In this document: positions 3,094-64,000 of the stretch, one piece after another
Layout: every line of letters begins with the position of its first letter
Numbering within the stretch: position 1 is the first letter of the stretch
Assembly: GCA_934120645.1 (NCBI GenBank)
Contig: CAKOUO010000006.1
Coordinates: 3,637-67,636 of the forward strand
Direction of reading: 5' to 3'
Length of the DNA: 64,000 nucleotides
Source of the DNA: an uncultured Clostridia bacterium
Lineage (GTDB): Bacteria > Bacillota > Clostridia > TANB77 > CAG-508
Notes under the pieces: model-generated
The model's database searches: none
What the model saw: only the letters and a program-made list of their open reading frames with translations
Told to the model about the DNA's origin: nothing
Translations under genes and position numbers: made by a program

Positions 3094-5331
3094 TTGATAG
3101 CAGAAGTAATAATAAATAGTACAGCAAGAAAATTAAATAGAACATTTGACTATAATATACCAAAAGAATTAGAAAATATGGTATATGTAGGAACAAAAGT
3201 ATTAGTTCCATTTGGAAAAATGAAAAAGCTAGAAGAAGCACATGTTGTAAAATTAAAAGAGACTTCTGATTTCGAAATAAAAGATATAGCAAAAGTAGAA
3301 AATGGTCTAACAGATAAGCAAATAGAACTTGCAAATTGGATGGCTAAAAGATATTTTTGTAATGTTTCAGAATGTATAAAATTACTGCAGACACCAGGGA
3401 CAAGAACAAAAAATACTGAAAAAAGAATTCAAGATAAATTTATAAATGTTATATATCTAAAAAAAGATTTTGAAGAAATACTTATATGTATAGATGAAGG
3501 AAAAATTAAATCAGAAAAACAGAAAAAAATTTTAAATTTTGTAAATGATAATGAGGGATGTACTGTACCAGAAATAGAAGCATTTACTGATTGTTCAAGA
3601 GCAATAGTTAATACTCTTGTAAAAAATGGATATCTAGAGATAGCAGAAAAAAAGATAGAAAGAAATCCTTTATTATATAAAAAAATAGAAGAAAATAAAA
3701 AACTAAGTTTAACAGAAGAACAAAATATAGCATTTGAAAAAGTAGAAAAGGCTATAAACGAAAATAGATTTGAAGAATTTTTATTATACGGAGTAACAGG
3801 CTCTGGAAAAACAGAGGTATACTTACAACTAATACAAAAAGTTTTAGAAACAGATAAAAAAGCAATAGTATTAGTTCCAGAAATTTCATTAACACCACAA
3901 ATGTTAGATAGATTTATAGGAAGATTCGGAAAGGAAAAAATAGCAGTTTTACATAGCAAATTATCAGTGGGAGAAAGACATGATGAATGGGAGAGAATAA
4001 AAGAAGATAAAGCAAAAATTGTAATAGGAGCAAGGTCTGCTATTTTTGCACCAGTAAAAAATTTAGGAATTATTATAATTGATGAAGAACACGATAGTTC
4101 TTACAAATCAGAATCAACCCCTAAATATGATGCGAAAGAAATTGCAAAGAAAATATCAAAAGAATTAAATATACCATTAGTTTTAGGAAGTGCAACACCT
4201 GATTTATCAACATATTATAAATCAAAAGAATTAAAAAAAATCACACTATTAGAATTAACTAAAAGAGCTAATAACTCATCATTACCAAAAGTAGAAATAG
4301 TAGATTTAAAACAAGAATTAGCTAATGGAAATAGATCAATGTTAAGTTTTGATTTATATCAAGCAATAGAAAAGAATTTAAAAGAAAAATTACAAACTAT
4401 TTTATTTTTAAATAGAAGAGGATATTCAACATTTATAATGTGCAGAAATTGTGGATATACTGTTAAATGTAAAAATTGTAATATAAGTATGACATATCAC
4501 AGTTATGAAAATAAACTAAAATGTCATTACTGTGGTTATGAAGAAAAGTTAGTAAAAACTTGTCCAGAATGTGGAAGTGATAAGATAAGATATTTTGGAA
4601 CAGGAACACAAAAATTAGAACAAGAAATCCATAAACAATTTCCACAAGCAAAAACAATAAGAATGGATGTTGATACTGTAACGAAAAAAAATTCACATGA
4701 AGAAATATTAAATAAATTCAAAAATGAAGATATTGATATTTTAATAGGAACACAAATGGTAGTTAAAGGGCACCATTTTCCTAAAGTTACATTAGTTGGA
4801 GTAATTGCAGCAGATAGCTCTTTAAATATAGATGATTATAGAGCAACAGAAAGAACCTTTCAGATATTAACACAAGTTGCAGGAAGAGCAGGAAGAGAAA
4901 ACTTACCAGGAAAAGTAATTATACAAAGCTATAATCCAGAAAACTTTAGTATACAAGCAGCAAAAAAACAAAATTACGAAGAATTTTATGAAACTGAAAT
5001 AGCACTAAGAAAACAGTTGAAATATCCACCATTTTGCGATATAATAGTAATTGGATTTAATGGTTTAGATGAAACTGAAATAAAAAAAATATCAAACAAA
5101 TCATATGAATATCTAATAAACAATTTAAATAATCAAGAATTTAAAATTTTTAAACCAATGCCTTCACCAATAGATAAAATTCAAAATAAATTCAGGTGGA
5201 GAATTATAATAAAAGGCAATATGAATGAACAGGCAAATGAAGTTTTAAATGATTTATTAAAAGATATATACAGTAAAAATTTTAAAAATACCAAAATAGT
5301 AGTTGATGTAAATCCAAATAGTATGATGTAA
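3094..5331 (+). CDS. priA: primosomal protein N' (replication restart helicase PriA)
   Basis: Walker A GVTGSGKT, DEEH box, Cys-rich zinc motifs (CRNCGY...CKNC...CHYCGY...CPECGS). TTG start with AAAGGAG SD. Confidence 0.9.
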   Translation: MIAEVIINSTARKLNRTFDYNIPKELENMVYVGTKVLVPFGKMKKLEEAHVVKLKETSDFEIKDIAKVENGLTDKQIELANWMAKRYFCNVSECIKLLQTPGTRTKNTEKRIQDKFINVIYLKKDFEEILICIDEGKIKSEKQKKILNFVNDNEGCTVPEIEAFTDCSRAIVNTLVKNGYLEIAEKKIERNPLLYKKIEENKKLSLTEEQNIAFEKVEKAINENRFEEFLLYGVTGSGKTEVYLQLIQKVLETDKKAIVLVPEISLTPQMLDRFIGRFGKEKIAVLHSKLSVGERHDEWERIKEDKAKIVIGARSAIFAPVKNLGIIIIDEEHDSSYKSESTPKYDAKEIAKKISKELNIPLVLGSATPDLSTYYKSKELKKITLLELTKRANNSSLPKVEIVDLKQELANGNRSMLSFDLYQAIEKNLKEKLQTILFLNRRGYSTFIMCRNCGYTVKCKNCNISMTYHSYENKLKCHYCGYEEKLVKTCPECGSDKIRYFGTGTQKLEQEIHKQFPQAKTIRMDVDTVTKKNSHEEILNKFKNEDIDILIGTQMVVKGHHFPKVTLVGVIAADSSLNIDDYRATERTFQILTQVAGRAGRENLPGKVIIQSYNPENFSIQAAKKQNYEEFYETEIALRKQLKYPPFCDIIVIGFNGLDETEIKKISNKSYEYLINNLNNQEFKIFKPMPSPIDKIQNKFRWRIIIKGNMNEQANEVLNDLLKDIYSKNFKNTKIVVDVNPNSMM

Positions 5332-5362
5332 TGTCCTTTTAGGGACGTTTCCCAAAAGGACA
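5332..5362 (+). repeat. REP-A copy 1 (31-nt palindromic element)
   Basis: TGTCCTTTTAGGGACGTTTCCCAAAAGGACA. Begins immediately after the priA TAA. Confidence 0.85.
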
Positions 5363-5381: not shown

Positions 5382-5858
5382 GTGGCAATAAGAAATTTAA
5401 GATATGAAGGAGACGAAATTTTAAATAAAAAATCTAGAGAAATTGAAAAAATAGATGAAAAACTACAAACATTAATAGATGATATGATAGATACAATGCA
5501 TAAATACAATGGAGTTGGACTAGCAGCTGTGCAAGTAGGAATTTTAAAAAGAGTTTTTGTTGTAGATTTATATGACGATAAAGGACCAATAGTTTTTATA
5601 AATCCTGTTATTTTAAAAACTAAAGGAGAAAGAGAAGTAGAAGAAGGGTGTTTAAGTTTTCCAAATCAATTTGCTAAAGTTGTTAGACCAGAAGAAGTTA
5701 CAGCAGAATACACAGATAGAAATGGAAAGCGTATGAGAGTAAAAGCAAAAGAATTATTGGCACAGGCCATTTGCCATGAATATGATCATTTAGAAGGAGA
5801 AGTTTTTGTTGATAAGATTATTCCAGGTACAATGGAATATGTAGAACCAGAAAACTAA
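5382..5858 (+). CDS. def: peptide deformylase
   Basis: Motifs GVGLAAVQVG, EGCLSFP and HEYDHLEG. GTG start with AGGAGG SD. Confidence 0.9.
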   Translation: MAIRNLRYEGDEILNKKSREIEKIDEKLQTLIDDMIDTMHKYNGVGLAAVQVGILKRVFVVDLYDDKGPIVFINPVILKTKGEREVEEGCLSFPNQFAKVVRPEEVTAEYTDRNGKRMRVKAKELLAQAICHEYDHLEGEVFVDKIIPGTMEYVEPEN

Positions 5859-5860
5859 AA

Positions 5861-5891
5861 TGTCCTTTTGGGGACGTTTATTAAAAGGACA
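5861..5891 (+). repeat. REP-A copy 2
   Basis: TGTCCTTTTGGGGACGTTTATTAAAAGGACA, 2 nt after the def TAA. The right arm is partly degenerate. Confidence 0.8.
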
Positions 5892-5925
5892 TTTTAGTTA
5901 AAAGAATAGTTACTGAAAATAAAAA

Positions 5926-5956
5926 TGTCCCATTGGGAAACGTCCCCAAAAGGACA
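5926..5956 (-). repeat. REP-A copy 3 (inverted relative to copy 2)
   Basis: TGTCCCATTGGGAAACGTCCCCAAAAGGACA. The loop is the reverse complement of the consensus loop. Forms an inverted doublet with copy 2. Confidence 0.8.
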
Positions 5957-5972
5957 AAAGGAGAAGAGAAGA

Positions 5973-43102: not shown

Positions 43103-45826
43103 TTGGACAAATTAGTATTAATAGATGGTAATAGCATAATGAATAGAGCTTTTTATGGTATTATGGGAAGCAAAACATTAACAAGTAAAGATGGAAAGTA
43201 TACAAATGCTATTTATGGTTTTTTAGCTATATTATTTAAATTATTAGAAGAAGAAAAACCAGAATATATAGCAGTAACATTTGATTTAAAAGCTCCAACA
43301 GCAAGACATAAATTATATGATGGGTATAAAGCAACAAGAAAAGGAATGCCTCAAGAGTTAGCTGAACAAATGCCTATAATAAAAGATATTTTAAGAGCAA
43401 TGAATATAGATATAATAGAAAAAGAAGGCTATGAAGGTGATGATGTAATAGGAACATTATCAAGATTTGGAGAGAAAAAAGGATTAGAAGTAGTAATTCT
43501 TTCAGGAGATAGAGATACATTTCAATTAGCAACAGATAAGGTAAGAATAAATATACCAAGAACTAAGGCAGGAAAAACAGAAACAGAAATCTTTGATAGA
43601 GAAAAAGTAAAAGAAGTTTATGGAATAGAACCAAAACAATTAATAGAAGTAAAAGGATTACAAGGAGATACATCTGACAATATACCAGGAGTTCCAGGAA
43701 TAGGAGAAAAAACAGCATTATCTTTAATACAAAAATATGAAACAATAGATAATTTGTATAAAAAATTAGAAGCAGGAGAAGCAGATGTAAAAGGAAAACA
43801 AAAAGAAAAATTGGAAGAAAATAAAGATTTAGCTTATCTTTCAAGAACATTGGGAGAGATAAATGTAAATGTTCCAATAGAAGATACTTTAGAACAATTA
43901 AAATTAGAAGAATGGGATAAACAAAAGGTATTAGAAATATTTAAGCAATTAAATTTTAAAAGATATATAGAAAGATTTAATTTGTTAGATGAAAATACCC
44001 AAGAACAATCAGAAAATAAAGATTTAGATAAACTATATAAAATAGAAAACAAATCAATAGAAGACATTAAAAAAATTATAAAAGAAAACAAAGAAATAAC
44101 ATTTTATATTAATACAGAAAAAGAAGAAAATGATGAAAAAATCATAAAAGAAAAAATAACAGGAATAGGAATTTTTAATAATAAACTAAAAGAAGCATAT
44201 TACTATGAATTCAAAGAAGAAAAAGATGTTCAAGAATTAAAAGAAATATTTGAATCAGAAGAAATATCAAAAATTGGAATAGATTTAAGTAAAGTATATA
44301 TATTATTAAAACAACAAAATATTCAAATAAAACAAATAAAATATGATGTATCAATAGCTGCATATATATTAAATCCAAATGATAATAAATTAACAATAAA
44401 TAGTTTAGCAGACAAATATCTAGAAATAGATGTAAGCGAATTATTAGAAGATAATAATAAACAAGAGCAAATAAATTTATTTGATACATTAAATAAAGAA
44501 GTTAATATAAAAGAAAATGAAAGTATAGCCAAAAAAACAACTTTATATGCTTGGATAATTTCTCAATTAAAAGAAATAACAACAAAAAAATTAGAAGAAA
44601 TAAATGCAATTTCATTATTTAATAATATAGATATGCCAACAGTAACAGTACTTGCAGATATGCAATGGAATGGAATGTATGCAGATGAAGAAGAACTTAA
44701 TAAATTTGGAAACAAATTAAAAGAACAATTAGAAATAAAAACAAAAATTATATATGAAATGGCAGGAGAAGAATTTAATATAAATTCAACAAAACAGCTT
44801 GGAGAAATTCTTTTTGAAAAAATGAAATTACCAGTTATAAAGAAAACAAAGAGCGGATATTCAACAGATGTAGATGTATTAGAAAAATTAAAATCCGAAG
44901 ATCCAATAATTCAAGAAATATTGGATTATAGACAATTAATGAAATTAAATTCAACATATGTTGAAGGATTAAAACCATATATAAACCCAAAAACAAAAAG
45001 AATACATTCATTTTTCCATCAAACAATAACTGCAACAGGCAGAATTAGTTCAACAGAACCAAACTTGCAAAACATCCCAACAAGATTTGAACTAGGTAAA
45101 CAAGTAAGAAAAATATTTAAACCAGAACAAGGAAAAATCTATATAGATGCAGACTATTCACAAATAGAACTAAGAGTATTAGCACATATGTCAGAAGATA
45201 AGCATATGATACAAGCATTTAAAGAAGGTCAAGACATACATAAACAAGCTGCATCAAAAGTATTTAAAACACCAATTGATGAAGTAACAAAAGAACAAAG
45301 AAGTAACGCAAAAGCAGTAAACTTTGGAATAGTATATGGAATTAGTGACTTTGGACTAGGAGAACAATTAGGAATATCAAGAAAAATAGCCAAAAAATAT
45401 ATAGAAGAATATTTACAAGAATATGAAGGCATAAAACAATTTATGGATAAAACAAAAGAAAAAGCAAAAGAAACAGGTTATGTAGAAACATTATTTAACA
45501 GAAGAAGATATATTCCAGAATTAAAATCAAACAATTATATGGTAAGACAATTTGGAGAAAGAGCAGCCATGAATACTCCTATACAAGGAACTGCTGCTGA
45601 TATAATGAAAATAGCAATGATAAATGTATATAATAAATTAATAGAAAAAGGATTAAAATCCAAAATAGTATTACAAGTCCATGATGAAATGATGATAGAA
45701 GCACCAATTGAAGAAGCAGAAGAAGTTAAAAAAATAGTAAAACAATCAATGGAAGAAGCGGTAACACTAAAAATTCCATTAATAGCAGAAGTATCAGAAG
45801 CAGAAAACTGGTATGAGTGCAAATGA
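43103..45826 (+). CDS. polA: DNA polymerase I
   Basis: 5' nuclease domain (LIDGNSIMNRAFY), SDNIPGVPGIGEKTA, DYSQIELRVLAH, QVHDE, C-terminal ENWYECK. TTG start with AGGAGG SD. Confidence 0.95.
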   Translation: MDKLVLIDGNSIMNRAFYGIMGSKTLTSKDGKYTNAIYGFLAILFKLLEEEKPEYIAVTFDLKAPTARHKLYDGYKATRKGMPQELAEQMPIIKDILRAMNIDIIEKEGYEGDDVIGTLSRFGEKKGLEVVILSGDRDTFQLATDKVRINIPRTKAGKTETEIFDREKVKEVYGIEPKQLIEVKGLQGDTSDNIPGVPGIGEKTALSLIQKYETIDNLYKKLEAGEADVKGKQKEKLEENKDLAYLSRTLGEINVNVPIEDTLEQLKLEEWDKQKVLEIFKQLNFKRYIERFNLLDENTQEQSENKDLDKLYKIENKSIEDIKKIIKENKEITFYINTEKEENDEKIIKEKITGIGIFNNKLKEAYYYEFKEEKDVQELKEIFESEEISKIGIDLSKVYILLKQQNIQIKQIKYDVSIAAYILNPNDNKLTINSLADKYLEIDVSELLEDNNKQEQINLFDTLNKEVNIKENESIAKKTTLYAWIISQLKEITTKKLEEINAISLFNNIDMPTVTVLADMQWNGMYADEEELNKFGNKLKEQLEIKTKIIYEMAGEEFNINSTKQLGEILFEKMKLPVIKKTKSGYSTDVDVLEKLKSEDPIIQEILDYRQLMKLNSTYVEGLKPYINPKTKRIHSFFHQTITATGRISSTEPNLQNIPTRFELGKQVRKIFKPEQGKIYIDADYSQIELRVLAHMSEDKHMIQAFKEGQDIHKQAASKVFKTPIDEVTKEQRSNAKAVNFGIVYGISDFGLGEQLGISRKIAKKYIEEYLQEYEGIKQFMDKTKEKAKETGYVETLFNRRRYIPELKSNNYMVRQFGERAAMNTPIQGTAADIMKIAMINVYNKLIEKGLKSKIVLQVHDEMMIEAPIEEAEEVKKIVKQSMEEAVTLKIPLIAEVSEAENWYECK

Positions 45827-45854
45827 CCTTTTGGGGACGTTTCCCAAATGGACA
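45824..45854 (+). repeat. REP-A copy 4
   Basis: TGACCTTTTGGGGACGTTTCCCAAATGGACA. Its first three bases are the polA TGA stop. Confidence 0.85.
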
Positions 45855-53356: not shown

Positions 53357-55252
53357 ATGATAGAAAAGATAAATTCACCAGAGGATTTAAAAAAATTAAA
53401 TATAGATGAAAAAAATGAATTAGCTAAAGAAATAAGAAAATATATATTAGAAATAGTTTCAGAAAATGGAGGGCACTTAGCATCTAATCTAGGAGTAGTA
53501 GAACTTACAATTGCTTTACATAGTGTATTTAACATGCCAGAAGATAAAATTGTTTGGGATGTAGGACATCAAACTTATGTGCATAAAATTATAACAGGAA
53601 GAAGAAAAGAATTAGTAACACTAAGAAAATTAGATGGAATAGCAGGCTTTCCAAAATCAAATGAATCTGAATATGACAGTTTTAATACAGGACATAGTAG
53701 TACATCAATATCAGCAGCATTAGGAATGGCAAGAGCAAGAGATTTAAAAGAGGAAAAACATAATGTAATAGCTGTAATAGGAGATGGAGCATTAACAGGA
53801 GGAATGGCATTAGAAGCATTAAATGATGCAGGATTTAGTAAAACAAATATTACAGTAATATTAAATGATAATGAAATGAGTATTTCTAAAAATATAGGTG
53901 GACTAAATATGTTCTTAAGTAAATTAAGAACAAAAAAATTGTATACAAAATCAAATGTATCAATGAAAAAAATAATAAATGAAATACCTATTATAGGAAA
54001 ACCATTTGTAAAGGTAGTACAAAGAGTTAAAAGAAGTATTAAACAATTAATTATACCAAAAATGTTTTTTGAAGACATAGGATTTACATATCTTGGACCA
54101 GTAGATGGGCATAATATAGAACAATTACAAAATATAATGCAATTAAGCAAACAAGTTGAAGGACCAGTATTAATACATGTCTTAACTAAAAAAGGAAAAG
54201 GATATAAAATAGCAGAAGACAGTCCAGATAAATTTCATGCAACAGCACCATTTGATATAGAAACAGGAAAAACAAAAAAAGAAAAAAAAGCAGATTACTC
54301 AAAAATATTTGGAGAAAAATTAGTACAGCTTGCAAAAAACAATAAAAAAATAGTTGCAATAACAGCATCAATGAAAGATGGAACAGGACTTAGTAAATTC
54401 CAAAAAGAATTTCCAAATAGATTTTTTGATGTAGGAATAGCAGAACAACATAGTTTAACAATGGCAGCAGGAATGGCAAAAGAAGGAATGATACCAGTAG
54501 TTCCTATATACTCATCATTTTATCAAAGAGCATATGACCAAGTAATACATGATATAGCAATGCAAGACTTACCAGTAGTAATGTGTGTAGACAGAGCAGG
54601 AGTTGTAGGAGCAGACGGAGAAACACATCAAGGAACATTAGATATGGCATTCTTTAGAATAATACCAAACTTAACAATAATGGCACCAAAAGACTTTAAA
54701 GAATTAGAAGACATGTTAGAATTTGCAATCAATTTAAAAAAGCCAGTAGTAATTAGATACCCAAGAGGAGGAGAAGAAAACAACATAAAATTTGAAAAAC
54801 ATAGCAAAATAGAATTAGGAAAATCAGAAAAACTAAAAGAAGGAAAAGACATAAGTATAATAGCAATAGGAAAAAGAGTATCAAAAGCAATAGAAATAGC
54901 AAAAAGCTATAAAGACAAAGGAATAGACGCAGAAATAATAAATGCAAGATTTTTAAAACCACTAGATAAAGAAACAATAAAAAAATCAATAGAAAAAACA
55001 AAAAATATAATAACACTTGAAGATGGAACAGAAATAAACGGATTAGGAACAGCAATAGAAGAATTAATAGTAGAAGAAAATTTACAAAAAATAAAATTTA
55101 AAAAATATGCATGGCCAGACGAATTTATAAAACACGGAAGTGTAGAAGAACTAGAAAAAATTTACAAAGTATGTCCTTTTGGGGACGTTTCCCAAATGGA
55201 CAAAAATTTCATTTTTGAATCAAATATTGAAAAAGGAGATAATAATGGATAA
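53357..55252 (+). CDS. dxs: 1-deoxy-D-xylulose-5-phosphate synthase (C-terminus altered by a REP insertion)
   Basis: GGHLASNLGVVELTIALH, GDGALTGGMALEALN, IAEQH. The last 27 codons (from 55172) are encoded by REP-A copy 5 plus spacer. Confidence 0.9.
   Translation: MIEKINSPEDLKKLNIDEKNELAKEIRKYILEIVSENGGHLASNLGVVELTIALHSVFNMPEDKIVWDVGHQTYVHKIITGRRKELVTLRKLDGIAGFPKSNESEYDSFNTGHSSTSISAALGMARARDLKEEKHNVIAVIGDGALTGGMALEALNDAGFSKTNITVILNDNEMSISKNIGGLNMFLSKLRTKKLYTKSNVSMKKIINEIPIIGKPFVKVVQRVKRSIKQLIIPKMFFEDIGFTYLGPVDGHNIEQLQNIMQLSKQVEGPVLIHVLTKKGKGYKIAEDSPDKFHATAPFDIETGKTKKEKKADYSKIFGEKLVQLAKNNKKIVAITASMKDGTGLSKFQKEFPNRFFDVGIAEQHSLTMAAGMAKEGMIPVVPIYSSFYQRAYDQVIHDIAMQDLPVVMCVDRAGVVGADGETHQGTLDMAFFRIIPNLTIMAPKDFKELEDMLEFAINLKKPVVIRYPRGGEENNIKFEKHSKIELGKSEKLKEGKDISIIAIGKRVSKAIEIAKSYKDKGIDAEIINARFLKPLDKETIKKSIEKTKNIITLEDGTEINGLGTAIEELIVEENLQKIKFKKYAWPDEFIKHGSVEELEKIYKVCPFGDVSQMDKNFIFESNIEKGDNNG
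55172..55202 (+). repeat. REP-A copy 5 (inside the dxs reading frame)
   Basis: TGTCCTTTTGGGGACGTTTCCCAAATGGACA, identical to copy 7. Confidence 0.85.
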
Positions 55253-56437: not shown

Positions 56438-58366
56438 ATGTACGTTAAAAGTAGTAATAAGAATGGAATTACTTTAATAGCTTTGGTTATAACGATTATA
56501 ATATTGTTAATTTTGGCGGGAATAACAATAGCAACATTAGGAGGAGAAAATGGATTATTAGCCAAAGTAAAAAAAGCAAAAGAAGCAGAAATAAAAGCAG
56601 AAATGAGAGAAGAATTAACATTAGCATTGCATGATTTGCAAATAGAAAAAAGAGCAGAAGCAACATTAGATGATGTAACACAAGATTGGATAAATGAGCA
56701 AATAAAGAAATATGAATGCACAGTAAAAGATGATGCATCACTAAGTGGAAAACAAGTAATAATGAAAAAAGACAAAATTATAGGAAAGTTTTTAATAGAT
56801 GGAAACTTAAATATAGTCGAAGAAGAATATAATGAAAGTAGTATAGAATTCTCATATGAAACAAGAGAAAGAGAAGGCAATAAAATAAATATAGCAATAA
56901 TAATAAAAGATGAAATAAATGGAATAAAAGAAGTACAAATGCCAGATGGAACAATATATCCATATAACAAAAAGGAACAAGTAGGAATAGATTATTTAGT
57001 AGAATTAGGAGTAGAATACAAAGTTAAGATAACATCAGAAAGTGGAGAAATAGTAGAAAAGACAATAAAAATAGATGACTATTATTATAAAATAACAAAG
57101 AACTTAGGAGATGGAATTAAGATAGACAATACAGCAATAAAATTAGCATGGAATAAACCATATCAAGCAACAATAACAGCAGAAGGAGATTATATAATAG
57201 ATACAATAGCAGTAACAATGGGAGGACAAGCAGTAACAGTAGATAAAACAACAGGAGTAATAAATATAGATAAAGTAACAGATGATATAGAAATAACAGC
57301 AACAGCAAAGAAATTAGAAATAAAATATACAGTAATAGCAGTAAATACACTTCCAAGTGATACTACATCATTGGAAGCAAATACACAACCAAAAGGAAGA
57401 ACATTATATATAAATATAATAGCAAACTTGGAAGGAACAAAGTGTAATGTAATTAATAAAGATGATAAGAAATCAGTACCATATGCAATAACGAAAAACG
57501 GAAAATATATATTTATAGTTACGGGAACATATAATGGAAAAACAATAACAGAAGAAAAAGAAGTGCTAGTCAATCAATATCAATCAGCACCAGATTTAGT
57601 AAAATATGATGCTGGGGAATGGACTAAAGAAGAGATAGAAGAATTACAAAATAAAAAATTATACGATATAAATATAAGCAAAACAGTAAATGATAAATAT
57701 AAACTAAAAGATAATACAGGATTAAATTTTACATTCGGAGGATTTACATACAAAGGTGATATAACAAATCAAACATTAGTAGATTCAGGAAAAATAATAA
57801 CAAGTAGAAATCAAAGTGTGAGTCCACAAGATGGATATGGAACACCCAAATATAATGGGTGGCAGATATTAGAAAAGCAAGAAAAAAATGGAAAAATATA
57901 TGTAGAAAAATTAATACATGCGGGGATATCAGAAAATTATGTGCATTATCACATAGAAAAGTATGATGGATATAGATCAGAGTATTTATTAACAAATAGA
58001 GCGAGAAGTACAGAATATAGCACATTAAGTGATGGAACAGTAATAAATTCAAGAAATTGGGATATGTATAAGGATAAAAATCAAATTAGTTTAATAAAAG
58101 ATGTTCATTGCATTACAGGTGAGGAAGCTTATAAATTATGTGAAGAAAACAATAAAATTAGATTAAACGGAGTATATTATTGGACAGGAAATACTTGGGG
58201 AAGTGGTTATTATAACGATTTGATATTTATAGATATTTGGGGTAGATACCAAGGAACTAGTGGTTTTTGTTGGGGTATTCGTCCAGTGGTAACAATGAAT
58301 GAAGGAGTATACATAGCAAGTGGAGATGGAACAGAGGAAAATCCGTATATATTAGCAAAAGAATAA
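56438..58366 (+). CDS. large surface protein with prepilin-type N-terminus lacking Glu5 (paralog P3)
   Basis: MYVKSSNKNG|ITLIALVITIIILLILAGI. Coiled-coil region and Ig-like modules. C-terminal YYWTGN...FCWGIRPVVTM motif as in P1. Confidence 0.65.
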   Translation: MYVKSSNKNGITLIALVITIIILLILAGITIATLGGENGLLAKVKKAKEAEIKAEMREELTLALHDLQIEKRAEATLDDVTQDWINEQIKKYECTVKDDASLSGKQVIMKKDKIIGKFLIDGNLNIVEEEYNESSIEFSYETREREGNKINIAIIIKDEINGIKEVQMPDGTIYPYNKKEQVGIDYLVELGVEYKVKITSESGEIVEKTIKIDDYYYKITKNLGDGIKIDNTAIKLAWNKPYQATITAEGDYIIDTIAVTMGGQAVTVDKTTGVINIDKVTDDIEITATAKKLEIKYTVIAVNTLPSDTTSLEANTQPKGRTLYINIIANLEGTKCNVINKDDKKSVPYAITKNGKYIFIVTGTYNGKTITEEKEVLVNQYQSAPDLVKYDAGEWTKEEIEELQNKKLYDINISKTVNDKYKLKDNTGLNFTFGGFTYKGDITNQTLVDSGKIITSRNQSVSPQDGYGTPKYNGWQILEKQEKNGKIYVEKLIHAGISENYVHYHIEKYDGYRSEYLLTNRARSTEYSTLSDGTVINSRNWDMYKDKNQISLIKDVHCITGEEAYKLCEENNKIRLNGVYYWTGNTWGSGYYNDLIFIDIWGRYQGTSGFCWGIRPVVTMNEGVYIASGDGTEENPYILAKE

Positions 58367-58382
58367 CAAGATAAAATAAAAA

Positions 58383-58413
58383 TGTCCTTTTGGGAAGCGT
58401 CCCCAAAAGGACA
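58383..58413 (-). repeat. REP-A copy 6
   Basis: TGTCCTTTTGGGAAGCGTCCCCAAAAGGACA (minus orientation). Lies 2 nt downstream of the minus-strand rimI stop. Confidence 0.85.
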
Positions 58414-58415
58414 TT

Positions 58416-58853
58416 TTATATTTTTTTACTCATTATAATAGCATTACTATTACCATAATAATTTTTTCTAACACCTAATTTTACAAAATCAAACTTATTA
58501 TATAAATTAATAGCAGAAATATTATTCTCATTAACTTCTAATGTAATGCTTTTTAAATTTAGAGATTTTGATAAAGAAATTAAATTTTCTAAAAGAACAG
58601 AGCCAATACCGTTTTTTCTAAAATTTTTTTTAACAACAATATTCATAATATCAGCTTCATCAATAATAATCTTAAAACCAGCAAAACCAACAATTTCATT
58701 ATTAGAATTTTTGGCAACTAAAAAATATGAAGAAGCACATTCCAATTCTTCTTTTAAAATATTATAATTCCAAAAGTCATCAAAATTAGAAAGTAAAATA
58801 TCTTTAATACTATTTAAATCATCCAAAGACATCTCATTAACTTTTAAATCCAT
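58416..58853 (-). CDS. rimI: ribosomal-protein-alanine N-acetyltransferase
   Basis: GNAT motif VKKNFRKNGIGSVLL. tsaE-tsaB-rimI context. ATG 58853 is preferred (GGTGA SD). The track's GTG is at 58865. Confidence 0.85.
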   Translation of the reverse strand: MDLKVNEMSLDDLNSIKDILLSNFDDFWNYNILKEELECASSYFLVAKNSNNEIVGFAGFKIIIDEADIMNIVVKKNFRKNGIGSVLLENLISLSKSLNLKSITLEVNENNISAINLYNKFDFVKLGVRKNYYGNSNAIIMSKKI

Positions 58854-58869
58854 TATAATCACCAATTAT

Positions 58870-61313: not shown

Positions 61314-62628
61314 ATGAGTAAAGTAGTAAAATTTATAACACTTGGCTGTAAAGTAAATCAATATGAAACAAACGCAATGGCACAAAAATTCTTAGAAAAA
61401 GGATATGAAATAATAGAAGAAGAAACAAAAAAAAATGAAAATAAAATTCCAGATATTTGTATAATAAATACATGCACAGTAACAAATATGTCAGACAGAA
61501 AATCAAGACAAATGTTAAGAAGAGTAAAAGAAAATAATGAGAAAACTATAGTAGTAGCTTGCCGGATGTTATGCACAAGTGGCTAAAGAAGAATTAAATA
61601 AAATACCAGAAATAGATTTAGTATTAGGAAATAATGAAAAAGTAGATATTGTAAAACATGTAGAAGAATATATAAAAAATAACACTCAAAATATTGAAAT
61701 AGAAGATGTAATGCAATCAAGAGAATTTTCAGACTTTGGAGATATAACATTTACAGAAAAAACAAGAGCAGTTATAAAAATACAAGATGGATGTGATAGA
61801 TTTTGCTCATATTGCATTATTCCATATGCAAGAGGAAGAGTTAGAAGTAGAAAACCAGAAAGCATTATATCTGAAGTACAAAAAATTTCAGAAGAAGGAA
61901 TAAAAGAAGTAGTTATAACAGGCATTCATATAGCATCATATGGAAAAGATTTTAAAAACAATTACAATTTAATTGACTTATTAGAGGAAATAAACAAAAT
62001 TGAAGGAATAGAAAGAATCAGATTAGGTTCAATAGAACCATTATTAATAACAGAAGAATTTGTAGAAAGATTAAAAAAATTAGAAAAAATATGCCATCAC
62101 TTCCATTTATCTTTACAAAGTGGATGTGATGAAACATTAAAAAGAATGAATAGAAGATATACAACACAGCAATTTAAGGAAATAACAGAAAGACTAAGAA
62201 AAACATATAATGATGTTAATTTAACAACAGATATAATAGTAGGTTTTCCAGGAGAAACAGAAAATGAATTCAATAAAACATACGAATTTTTAAAAGAAAT
62301 TAAATTTTATAAAATGCATATATTTAAATATTCACAAAGAAAAGGAACAAAAGCAGCTATAATGGAAAACCAAATACCAGGAGACATCAAAGAAAAAAGA
62401 AGCAAGAAGCTTATAGAATTATCTAACAAGAATGAGATTGAATATAACAAAGAATACATAGGAAAAGAAGTAGAAGTATTATTTGAAGAAGAAAAAGATG
62501 GAGTATATAAAGGACATACAGCAAATTATATGTTAATCCAATGTAAAACAAATGAAAATTTAGAAAATAAAATAAAAAAAGTAAAATGTGTAAAAGCAGA
62601 TATTGATCATATAGAAGCAGAAATATAA
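61314..62628 (+). pseudogene. mtaB: tRNA t6A37 methylthiotransferase MtaB (radical SAM, MiaB-like) interrupted by a +1 frameshift
   Basis: ORFs 61314..61586 and 61579..62628 are collinear halves. Removing one C from TGCCGGATG (61560-61568) restores ...VVACGCYAQVAKEEL... CDRFCSYCIIPYARG radical-SAM motif. TRAM-like C-terminus. Confidence 0.8.
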
Positions 62629-62769: not shown

Positions 62770-63090
62770 ATGTCAGAATTAGATCAAAATAATACACCAA
62801 ATGTATTTGGAGGAGTTTCATTTGAAAATACTGAAATAGAAGCAGAAGGAATGCCAGAAAATGCAGGAACAATAAGAAATACAGCATTACCTACAAAAGT
62901 AGGATTTTGGCAAAAATTTAAAGCATTTTGGTTACAAGAAATAGATTGGAACAAGGAAATAAAAGTTGTATTAACACCAAAGCAACAAAAAGTAGAAGAT
63001 GAAATAAATGAATTTTTACATCAAGAAATAACTTGGGAAAAAGTACATGACTTTTTATTCCAAGAAGTTACATTTGGAAAAAATAAATAA
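62770..63090 (+). CDS. hypothetical protein
   Basis: Strong SD (AAAGGAGG). 106 aa, rich in Trp and acidic residues, no recognised motif. Confidence 0.35.
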   Translation: MSELDQNNTPNVFGGVSFENTEIEAEGMPENAGTIRNTALPTKVGFWQKFKAFWLQEIDWNKEIKVVLTPKQQKVEDEINEFLHQEITWEKVHDFLFQEVTFGKNK

Positions 63091-63121
63091 TGTCCTTTTG
63101 GGGACGTTTCCCAAATGGACA
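63091..63121 (+). repeat. REP-A copy 7
   Basis: TGTCCTTTTGGGGACGTTTCCCAAATGGACA. Begins immediately after a TAA stop and lies 168 nt upstream of the RAYT-like gene. Confidence 0.85.
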
Positions 63122-63192
63122 AAATCAAAATAAAGTTTCAATTTGTAAGTATGTTTGCACAAATGTGAATTTTTTATGAAAAATGGGAAAAG

Positions 63193-63231
63193 AGTATAGC
63201 ATATAAAAATAAAATGTGCTATACTTTTTTT
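63193..63231 (+). terminator. intrinsic terminator
   Basis: AGTATAGCA-loop-TGCTATACT followed by TTTTTT. Confidence 0.65.
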
Positions 63232-63289
63232 GATATTTCTGGGGGAAAAATAAAGTGGGAAAGACAATAAAGATTAAGGAGAGTGCTAA

Positions 63290-64000
63290 ATGCCCAGATA
63301 TAATAGACAATATAGTGAAATAAAAGTATATCATGTTATTATAAGAGGAATAAATAAACAGAATATCTTCTTAGATGACAAAGATAAAACAAAGTTCTTA
63401 AAAATACTAATTGAAACAAAAGAAAAGTATGAATATGAAATTTATGCGTATTGTTTAATGAGTAATCATATCCATATTGTTATTTATGATAAAAAAAACA
63501 AATTATCAACAATAATGCAAAGCATAGAAATAAGTTATTCACTATACTTTAACAAAAAATATAACAGAATAGGACACCTATTTCAAAATAGATTTTTGAG
63601 TAAAAAGGTAGAAGATAGAAATTATTTTATGCAAGTATGCAGATATATTCATAAAAATCCATTAAAAGCAGGAATTGCAAAGACAGAAGAATATAAATGG
63701 AGCAGTTTTAGAGAATATATAGGAAAACCTTCTATTAGCAATTGTGAAAAATTACTATCAGTATTTTCAAATAATGAAATAGAAGCCAAAAAATATTTTG
63801 TTCAATTTCATAATATTAATAGTGATAAAGAAATTCATGAATTACTTGAATTTGAAATGGAAGAAAAAATTAGTGATGAACAATTAAAAAAATATATAAG
63901 TGAAACATTAGAAATGGATAATATATATCAAATTATAGAATTAAATAAAAAAGAAAGAAATAAATTACTAGCAAAAATAAAAGAAACAAAAGAAATTACA
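63290..64000 (+). CDS. IS200/IS605-type Y1 (HUH) transposase, REP-associated tyrosine transposase (RAYT)-like; 3' end beyond the window
   Basis: Not in the ORF track because there is no stop in the window. ATG 63290 with AAGGAG SD. Translates as MPRYNRQYSEIKVYHVIIRG...YAYCLMSNHIHIVIY (HUH)...GHLFQNRF...CRYIHKNPLKAG (catalytic Tyr context). Open for 237 codons to nt 64000. Confidence 0.8.
   Translation, partial: MPRYNRQYSEIKVYHVIIRGINKQNIFLDDKDKTKFLKILIETKEKYEYEIYAYCLMSNHIHIVIYDKKNKLSTIMQSIEISYSLYFNKKYNRIGHLFQNRFLSKKVEDRNYFMQVCRYIHKNPLKAGIAKTEEYKWSSFREYIGKPSISNCEKLLSVFSNNEIEAKKYFVQFHNINSDKEIHELLEFEMEEKISDEQLKKYISETLEMDNIYQIIELNKKERNKLLAKIKETKEIT

Follow-up and report, generated by a model that had tools for sequence, protein, structure and literature searches.

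Does a lone transposase-like gene that stands beside a copy of a dispersed hairpin repeat form a system with that repeat? The question is raised by the 3' end of a 64-kb stretch of DNA (contig CAKOUO010000006.1, positions 3,637 to 67,636; here called the window) from an uncultured Clostridia bacterium. An open reading frame (ORF) that begins at position 63290 encodes a protein resembling REP-associated tyrosine transposases (RAYTs), the Y1/HUH enzymes associated with repetitive extragenic palindromic (REP) sequences, and a copy of a repeat named REP-A precedes it. An earlier reading of this DNA, made without database searches and called the sequence-only reading below, had noted the pairing and interpreted it as a candidate REP-mobilizing system. 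The observation is confirmed by the analysis reported here and the interpretation is supported, every refuting check that was run having come out in its favor. We estimate a probability of about three in four that the gene encodes a single-copy, chromosomally fixed, and domesticated Y1/HUH endonuclease or transposase of the RAYT superfamily, which makes up a REPtron-like unit with two inverted copies of REP-A.

Results

A gene for a Y1/HUH tyrosine transposase-like protein

The gene runs off the 3' end of the window, and its remainder was read from near-identical metagenome contigs, which were found via the 106-amino-acid (aa) protein encoded upstream and are 99% identical to the last 5.7 kb of the window. 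On translation, the ATG at 63290 opens a 237-codon ORF of the RAYT/TIRYT type without a stop inside the window (63290 to 64000, plus strand), corresponding to residues 1 to 237 of 255; a further 18 codons and the stop codon follow outside it. The full gene (L001:10521-11288) encodes 255 aa and ends in ...ITSVQIARVLGINRKIVERA in the near-identical contigs, and its product (P0001) is 100% identical to the 237 aa encoded in the window. Two motifs can be read directly from the plus strand: the HUH motif, H60-I61-H62 within SNHIHIV (codons at 63467 to 63475), and the catalytic tyrosine motif, Y119-I-H-K-N-P (codons at 63644 to 63661), which carries the class 2 signature Y---NP and aligns with YIYINP of 4er8. 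The ORF and its motifs (CLMSNHIHIV, GHLFQNRF, and CRYIHKNP) are exactly those claimed in the sequence-only reading. An alignment of 32 homologues shows no variation at N59, H60, H62, G95 to Q99, C117 to H121, N123, P124, W137, or S139.

The profile search that had been proposed as a check was positive, with Pfam Y1_Tnp (PF01797) matching residues 14 to 123 at E = 6.5e-16 and 59 bits (cutoff, 23 bits). The NCBIfam model REP_Tyr_transpos (NF047646; cutoff, 80 bits) gave 72.5 bits with the window fragment and 70.4 bits with the full-length protein, compared with 20.6 to 22.8 bits for the IS200 model (cutoff, 55 bits). The AlphaFold model of the protein has a predicted local distance difference test (pLDDT) score of 85, and its best match in the PDB is 4ER8, E. 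coli TnpA-REP with a REP hairpin (E = 3.9e-8; target-normalized TM-score, 0.75), followed by the IS608, ISDra2, and IS200 transposases. A phmmer search of PDB sequences with the single protein found nothing relevant; a family profile (A1) had 4er8 as its sole match, a weak one (E = 0.15) in which the HUH and Y motifs are aligned. The choice between RAYT and IS200, which had been left to further analysis, thus falls to RAYT on the NCBIfam scores, on Y---NP in place of Y---Q, and on the best-matching fold.

Homologue searches gave 1368 matches of 250 to 290 aa, nearly all unnamed or labeled "transposase." Many lie on contigs of ~1 kb, as expected if flanking repeats break assemblies, and some contigs (L221, L140, and L141) stop at REP sites; REP hairpins appear to break short-read metagenome assemblies. 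In agreement with the sequence-only reading, the window contains no second copy of the gene (best other tblastn match, E = 0.16). That reading also saw no tnpB-like ORF in the window, and among the genes called on the surrounding 20-kb contig none is tnpB-like; the neighbors are housekeeping genes. No close homologues were found on plasmids or phages, from which we conclude that the gene is chromosomal rather than plasmid or phage borne.

The gene lies between inverted REP-A copies at a fixed locus

REP-A is a 31-mer, TGTCCTTTTGGGGACGTTTCCCAAATGGACA, whose single-stranded DNA folds into a hairpin at -10.2 kcal/mol (z = -4.1). The copy upstream of the gene (63091 to 63121, with the G-rich strand on the plus strand) starts 0 nucleotides (nt) after the TAA of the ORF at 62770 to 63090 and lies 168 nt upstream of the ATG, as had been reported. 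The inverted copy that was predicted on the other side exists: a minus-oriented REP-A with 2 mismatches lies 47 nt after the stop codon of the gene (L001:11336-11366) and 12 nt before the start of radA. The protein is carried by 22 contigs of the species, and every one of the 12 distinct contigs that run far enough past the gene has the downstream copy. The two flanking copies are inverted, 94% complementary, and 983 nt apart.

The gene has the same neighbors, namely, an mtaB-like gene, orf106 (which encodes the 106-aa protein), radA, and disA, in 22 of 22 species contigs, which indicates one fixed locus without tnpB and answers the proposed copy-number check: the gene is not multicopy. A search of a contig set with one genome per species gave 255 relatives, of which the best 80 loci come from metagenome-assembled genomes (MAGs) of uncultured gut Clostridia from human, mouse, chicken, and rabbit. 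The window species was not found in this set, in which the best relative is 59 to 61% identical. The order mtaB-orf106-gene-radA is kept in ~70 of the 80 loci, with neighbors that are mostly 65 to 90% identical and a gene that is 45 to 61% identical. Conserved synteny around a gene more diverged than its neighbors points to a long history of vertical inheritance at one site. Almost always there is one locus per genome; a second gene copy at another locus was found in a few related genomes (L010, L198, L202, L208, L209, and L211).

The flanking pair is conserved as well. Scored as a plus-oriented GGGACGKTY upstream of the gene (~150 to 250 nt) and a minus-oriented one downstream (~20 to 120 nt), it recurs in 61 of the 80 loci, and the REP types co-vary with the gene, as described below. 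Elsewhere among the homologues, C-terminal tails such as NVQKEPSLLD in P0037, P0049, P0055, and P0080 are the translated downstream REP (AATGTCCAAAAAGAACCGTCCCTTTTGGAC), which means that the REP overlaps the 3' end of the gene in those species.

Dispersed REP-A copies abut stop codons

REP-A is the sole genuine dispersed repeat family in the window (family D1). It has 6 matches at no more than 3 mismatches, versus 0.00 expected from 100 shuffles, and a seventh with 4 mismatches at 5861, a density of ~1 per 9 kb. Rfam has no family for REP-A or for the hairpin upstream of the gene. The pairing of the gene with a stop codon-associated repeat, to which the sequence-only reading had drawn attention, is borne out by copies that lie 0 to 2 nt after stop codons or form them. 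On the plus strand, one copy (5332 to 5362) starts 0 nt after the TAA of priA (3094 to 5331), and the copy with 4 mismatches (5861 to 5891) starts 2 nt after the TAA of def (5382 to 5858). The latter is the left half of a convergent doublet whose right half is an inverted, minus-strand copy just before the ribosome-binding site of fmt (5926 to 5956); the doublet (5855 to 5962) folds at -28.3 kcal/mol (z = -8.3). A minus-strand copy (58383 to 58413) lies 2 nt after the TAA of a minus-strand acetyltransferase gene (58416 to 58865). The first three bases of the plus-strand copy at 45824 to 45854 (TGA; consensus, TGT) are the stop codon of polA (43103 to 45826), and this stop arises from a T-to-A variant at REP position 3. 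Another plus-strand copy, identical to the gene-flanking copy (55172 to 55202), lies within the dxs ORF (53357 to 55252), which reads through it in frame near its 3' end; the translation runs across the REP as ...KVCPFGDVSQMDKNF... and continues for ~16 further codons after it (55172 to 55252). The two minus-oriented copies (5900 to 5956 and 58357 to 58413) have in common an additional tail, ~26 nt long and rich in T on the REP strand (TTTTTATTTT...TTATTCTTTT), which suggests a longer, terminator-like REP-A subfamily.

In the clade as a whole, 17 of 35 dispersed copies begin at, or overlap, the stop codon of an ORF in the same orientation, versus 2 of 35 on the opposite strand, and the REP 3' flank is T-rich. 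Positive GC skew is strong on the plus strand throughout the window. Given the replication strand bias of Firmicutes, this skew would put most G-rich REP strands on the lagging-strand template, the strand on which IS608-type enzymes act. The polarity of the copies may stem from the insertion mechanism, from selection for a terminator-like role, or from both.

REP stems diverge together with the gene

The REP loop is conserved (GGGGACGTTTC; across the clade, about TTGGGGACGTTTCTTTT). The stems are species specific yet complementary: TGTCCA/TGGACA, TGTCCCA/TGGGACA, ATGTCG/CGACAT, TGTGAAA/TTTCACA, GTGCAA/TTGCAC, TGTCGC/GCGACA, TTTCGC/GCGAAA, and GGGACAA/TTGTCCC. Of 204 copies, 137 have an unbroken run of 6 or more pairs around the loop, compared with 29 of 204 when the 3' flank is shuffled, and the register of the innermost stem varies between copies. 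A small GTCC(C)...GGGAC hairpin was considered as the repeat unit and dropped, since it cannot be built from stems such as GGAGCAA or TGTGAAA. The degenerate pattern TGTCCN{4,5}GGGACGKTTC, run over the contig set, was also set aside; it is too permissive, and many of its matches, which lie in high-GC genomes, are probably fortuitous.

The variable parts of dispersed copies resemble the copies that flank the gene of the same genome (median identity, 0.81) more than the flanks of other genomes (0.55). The genome's own flank is the best or tied match in 19 of 44 cases and among the top five in 29 of 44. One MAG (CASEIZ01) has two paralogues of the gene, L193 and L198, each with a private REP type, and both types are dispersed in that genome. 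The second of these types (TGTCGCATAGAGTTCGTTTGTCTATGCGACA; L198:1414-1526 and L250:3251) also forms a small tandem array.

REP-bounded units have moved

A REP 21-mer occurs in at least 120 stretches, with at least 16 copies in one MAG, and among the matches listed all are from MAGs labeled Clostridia, Clostridium, Clostridiaceae, Eubacteriales, or Bacillota. Among the 184 matches in the examined loci, 43 pairs spaced by less than 500 nt are convergent (plus, then minus) and none is divergent; convergence is also the arrangement around the gene. One MAG (CAJFRV01) contains twice an element of ~295 nt that is bounded exactly by inverted REPs (L098:3785-4078 and L266:7240-7534). The two copies are 97.3% identical over 299 nt, the similarity ends exactly at TGTCC... 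and ...GGACA, and the flanks are unrelated and lack a target duplication. The element is internally palindromic and resembles a miniature inverted-repeat transposable element (MITE); copies 86 to 90% identical to it occur at other sites in other species (L247, L252, and L325). A duplicated element with unrelated flanks and no target duplication is direct evidence that REP-bounded units have moved in this clade, as expected of single-strand transposition of the IS200/IS605 type.

The C-terminal domain and the region upstream of the gene

Residues ~186 to 255 form an extra C-terminal domain, which starts in the window (63845 to 64000, plus strand) and consists of five helices in the AlphaFold model (pLDDT, 88). 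The sequence-only reading had seen a helix-turn-helix (HTH)-type domain in the stretch ISDEQLKKYISETLEMDNIYQIIELNKKERNKLL. That stretch is present and the domain is helical, and the HTH part of the claim fared less well. A Pfam scan of 32 homologues found no HTH family in the domain; the isolated tail matched HTH_19 at E = 0.012 and had no match to Bac_DnaA_C, HTH_23, or HTH_28. A Foldseek search with a dedicated model of the domain gave nothing significant, and its weak matches (E of ~2 or more) were mostly HTH DNA-binding domains (ParB, RptR, DeoR, and DnaA domain IV). Protein A repeats, the sole matches of a profile of the domain, were considered spurious. The likeliest HTH, ...SVQIARVLGINRKIVERA, lies mostly past nt 64000. 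The domain, for which no Pfam family and no significant structural neighbor were found, is plausibly HTH-like and probably DNA binding.

Between the upstream REP-A and the gene, two blocks at 63163 to 63230 are conserved in nearly all related loci inspected: a TGTGAATTTTT-GTGAA-like block and an inverted repeat, AGTATAGCA-N9-12-TGCTATACTTTTTTT. In the window, the latter is AAAAGAGTATAGCATAT-N9-ATGTGCTATACTTTTTT (63188 to 63230, plus strand; -9.1 kcal/mol, z = -6.0), and its 3' arm resembles an extended -10 box (TGnTATACT). Judged from its sequence, the repeat may be a promoter/operator for autoregulation or the terminator of orf106. A promoter and terminator scan around the gene found nothing above shuffled expectation and did not call the copy at 63091 as a terminator.

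Neighboring genes

orf106 (62770 to 63090) has no Pfam or NCBIfam family; it is conserved (mostly 60 to 87% identity) and syntenic throughout the clade, and its end is invariably marked by the upstream REP. Independent assemblies of this species show a frameshift in radA (L001:11379-12750), which lies directly 3' of the gene and its REP. The cause is an additional C in AGATTA-C-GGTATA; in L003, a G run contains a second indel. In related MAG loci (L007 to L216), radA is interrupted at varying positions in 38 of 72 and intact (~454 aa) in 32 of 72. The mtaB/miaB-like gene (61314 to 62628), just upstream of the locus, is split by an apparent frameshift into overlapping ORFs of 90 aa (UPF0004) and 349 aa (Radical_SAM), which is the same in all sampled strains. 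The alignment of the window with L001 breaks at 58128 to 58265, a strain-variable stretch in the 3' part of a 642/648-aa ORF (56438 to 58366).

Discussion

Placement of the protein

Quentin et al. (2018; PMC6006769) sorted TnpAY1 proteins into motif-based classes, in which subclass 2.1 is marked by NH[VYF]H, W[EQ] or FQ, YIELNP or Y[IV]HLNP, and "SS" in the proximal tail (their Table 1). The protein described here has NHIH, GHLFQNRF, YIHKNP, and YKWSSF; it departs conservatively from the pattern at two points, where I is the hydrophobic residue and K replaces L. By motifs, length, and a distal C-terminal domain it fits TnpAY1 subclass 2.1 better than the classic RAYT groups of E. coli or Pseudomonas, membership being judged on motifs rather than on the authors' own profiles. 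In other schemes this subclass appears as RAYT Group 1 (Bertels et al., 2017; PMC5581495), which is reported from the Clostridia as well, and as TIRYT/TIRtron of Di Nocera et al. (2013; PMC3733652). No Firmicutes are among the TIRYTs listed in the latter paper, and a further search on RAYTs in Firmicutes found nothing in the literature available to us.

A probable mechanism

By homology to IS608 TnpA and E. coli TnpA-REP, the protein would most likely bind the folded hairpin on single-stranded DNA, where the G-rich strand of most copies would lie on the lagging-strand template, and would recognize the conserved loop (TTGGGGACGTTTC...) plus the stem. It would then cut at the predicted site, the hairpin foot, by means of H60/H62 and Y119. 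Rejoining of the strands would copy single REPs or convergent doublets to new sites without target duplication, in this species perhaps to the present day. Surviving copies would be those directly after stop codons and co-oriented with the gene, where they would probably serve as 3'-end or terminator-like hairpins of the RNA.

Evidence against a REPtron-like unit and competing explanations

Several points weigh against our reading. The protein (70 to 72 bits) does not reach the curated NCBIfam RAYT cutoff of 80 bits. Among the 137 copies with a scored stem, the canonical GT[AG]G tag is at or next to the hairpin foot in 3 and CGTC is at the foot in none, so that these REPs are neither GTAG tagged nor CGTC tagged. 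Quentin et al. (2018; PMC6006769) found no REP-like sequences beside subclass 2.1 genes by either automatic or manual searches. The REP-A sites compared (after priA, after def, before fmt, at the polA end, and at both gene flanks) are occupied by the same variants in every sampled strain, so that there is no presence/absence polymorphism and no sign of recent movement in this species. Single-copy status and the genome-wide abundance of REP-A were judged from the 64-kb window and from contig contexts. Finally, exact adjacency to stop codons could reflect a host function at the RNA level that is independent of the transposase. Since the curated score is missed and the GTAG tag is absent, we do not file the locus as a canonical RAYT/REP system; most likely it works like one.

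The last of these points leads to an explanation that we consider unlikely, namely, that REP-A is a host-selected terminator or mRNA 3'-end element that spread independently of the protein, while the gene has another job, such as DNA repair beside radA. The gene does adjoin radA and disA, the 3' flank of the REPs is T-rich, their sites are fixed among strains, and the excess of co-oriented copies 0 to 2 nt after stops (17 of 35, versus 2 of 35 on the opposite strand) speaks for a host element. Against it stand an inverted pair that is kept around the gene in 61 of 80 loci while the stems change, dispersed copies that track the flanking copies of their own genome, two paralogues with private REP types, identical REP-bounded elements at unrelated sites, and the copy at 63091, which a simple scan for terminators failed to call. 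The REPs could, moreover, both act as terminators and owe their spread to the RAYT.

Might the REP-gene-REP unit instead be an ordinary autonomous insertion sequence (IS) similar to IS200/IS605, single copy by chance, whose solo ends or MITEs are the dispersed hairpins? It shares with such elements a Y1_Tnp fold and inverted hairpin ends, six related loci (L010, L198, L202, L208, L209, and L211) testify to a second copy elsewhere, and REP-bounded MITE-like elements exist. An IS is nevertheless hard to reconcile with a gene that occupies the same locus in ~70 of 80 relatives and is more diverged than its neighbors, as after long vertical descent, that has a single context in 22 of 22 species contigs, and that has no close relatives found on plasmids or phages. 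The IS200 score of 21 to 23 bits against a cutoff of 55, Y---NP rather than Y---Q, and the lack of tnpB point the same way, and we regard this explanation as quite improbable. Least credible to us, with only a very small chance of being correct, is that the protein is a decayed or inactive relic and the REPs are fossils of a past expansion, with nothing mobilized now. The uniformity of REP-A sites among strains and the truncated genes of a few relatives (L187, L210, and L214) would suit a relic. Hundreds of homologues that keep the ORF at full length, with HUH, Tyr, and C-terminal residues that do not vary, speak against one, and the homogeneity of REPs within genomes together with the 97%-identical duplicated element argues for recent activity somewhere in the clade.

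Implications

A domesticated RAYT-like protein between its own REPs invites a broader and more tentative proposal, which we think possible but would not bet on. Throughout this clade of uncultured gut Clostridia, REPs and a RAYT may have been partners since ancient times and have been inherited vertically, the RAYT being a subclass 2.1 enzyme that would recognize the loop rather than a GTAG foot. Its hairpins might have been co-opted as polar, stop-abutting 3'-end elements, some of which supply the stop or extend the ORF, and the C-terminal domain might autoregulate the gene via the inverted repeat overlapping the TGnTATACT -10 box.

To our knowledge, REP/RAYT systems have been characterized almost only in Proteobacteria, with some in Cyanobacteria and Bacteroidetes, and we know of no DNA substrate assigned to subclass 2.1/TIRYT, the largest non-IS class of Y1 proteins. 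The locus described here would extend the REP/RAYT partnership to Firmicutes and to a subclass reported without REPs, for which it gives a clear candidate substrate. It comprises a natural series of at least 60 species whose protein and hairpin diverged together at a single fixed locus, which suits the mapping of recognition determinants, and it offers a compact, AT-rich Firmicute setting for the effects of stop-codon repeats on termination and mRNA ends. Hairpins that break short-read assemblies and get translated into gene ends also matter for the annotation of gut MAGs.

Comparison with known systems

The closest structural parallel is E. coli TnpA-REP (RayT/YafM; REPtron, subclass 2.2, 4ER8), with which the protein shares the Y1/HUH fold and which is its best structural match. 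There, too, a single-copy chromosomal gene lies between inverted copies of a dispersed hairpin that is found mostly just downstream of genes. The sequence similarity between the two proteins is marginal (E = 0.15), and the protein described here, at 255 aa, is ~90 aa longer and has an extra C-terminal helical domain. Unlike the REPs and bacterial interspersed mosaic elements (BIMEs) of E. coli, the hairpin here has no 5' GT[AG]G tag and it is the loop, not the foot, that is conserved across species. The host, moreover, is a Firmicute rather than a proteobacterium.

In its key motifs the protein matches TIRYT/subclass 2.1/Group 1 (PMC3733652, PMC6006769, and PMC5581495), as seen in N-H-u-H, FQ for WE/WQ, Y-I-H-x-N-P, and "SS" (YKWSSF), and it resembles this group in a length of ~240 to 260 aa and a low copy number. 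The distal C-terminal domain of TIRYTs has been described as HTH-like (Bac_DnaA_C, HTH_23, or HTH_28); the domain here matches none of these families. Some TIRYT terminal repeats in TIRtrons are self-complementary and moderately repeated. REP-A carries GGGGACGT, which fits 6 of 8 positions of the TIRYT terminal consensus GGGGWSAS, and L007, L009, and L011 have GGGACAG in the gene-proximal part of a 55-nt inverted repeat. In contrast to subclass 2.1 as described in PMC6006769, a short REP-type hairpin here both flanks the gene and is dispersed.

The REPIN-RAYT systems of Pseudomonas fluorescens and relatives (Bertels and Rainey, 2011; PMC3116915) share with this locus convergent doublets as units, a single-copy and vertically inherited transposase, and a REP family of its own for each paralogue. 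They differ in protein group (Groups 2/3) and REP architecture, and the doublet spacers here, unlike those of REPINs, are ~35 to 350 nt, can hold unrelated DNA, and are MITE-like. With IS200/IS605 TnpA (IS608 and ISDra2) the protein has in common the catalytic fold and would share the recognition of hairpin ends on single-stranded DNA, and in both cases target duplication is absent. A multicopy autonomous IS with frequent tnpB, a length of ~130 to 155 aa, and Y---Q, all features of IS200/IS605, are not what is found at this locus, where a longer Y---NP protein stands at one fixed chromosomal site between two inverted REPs.

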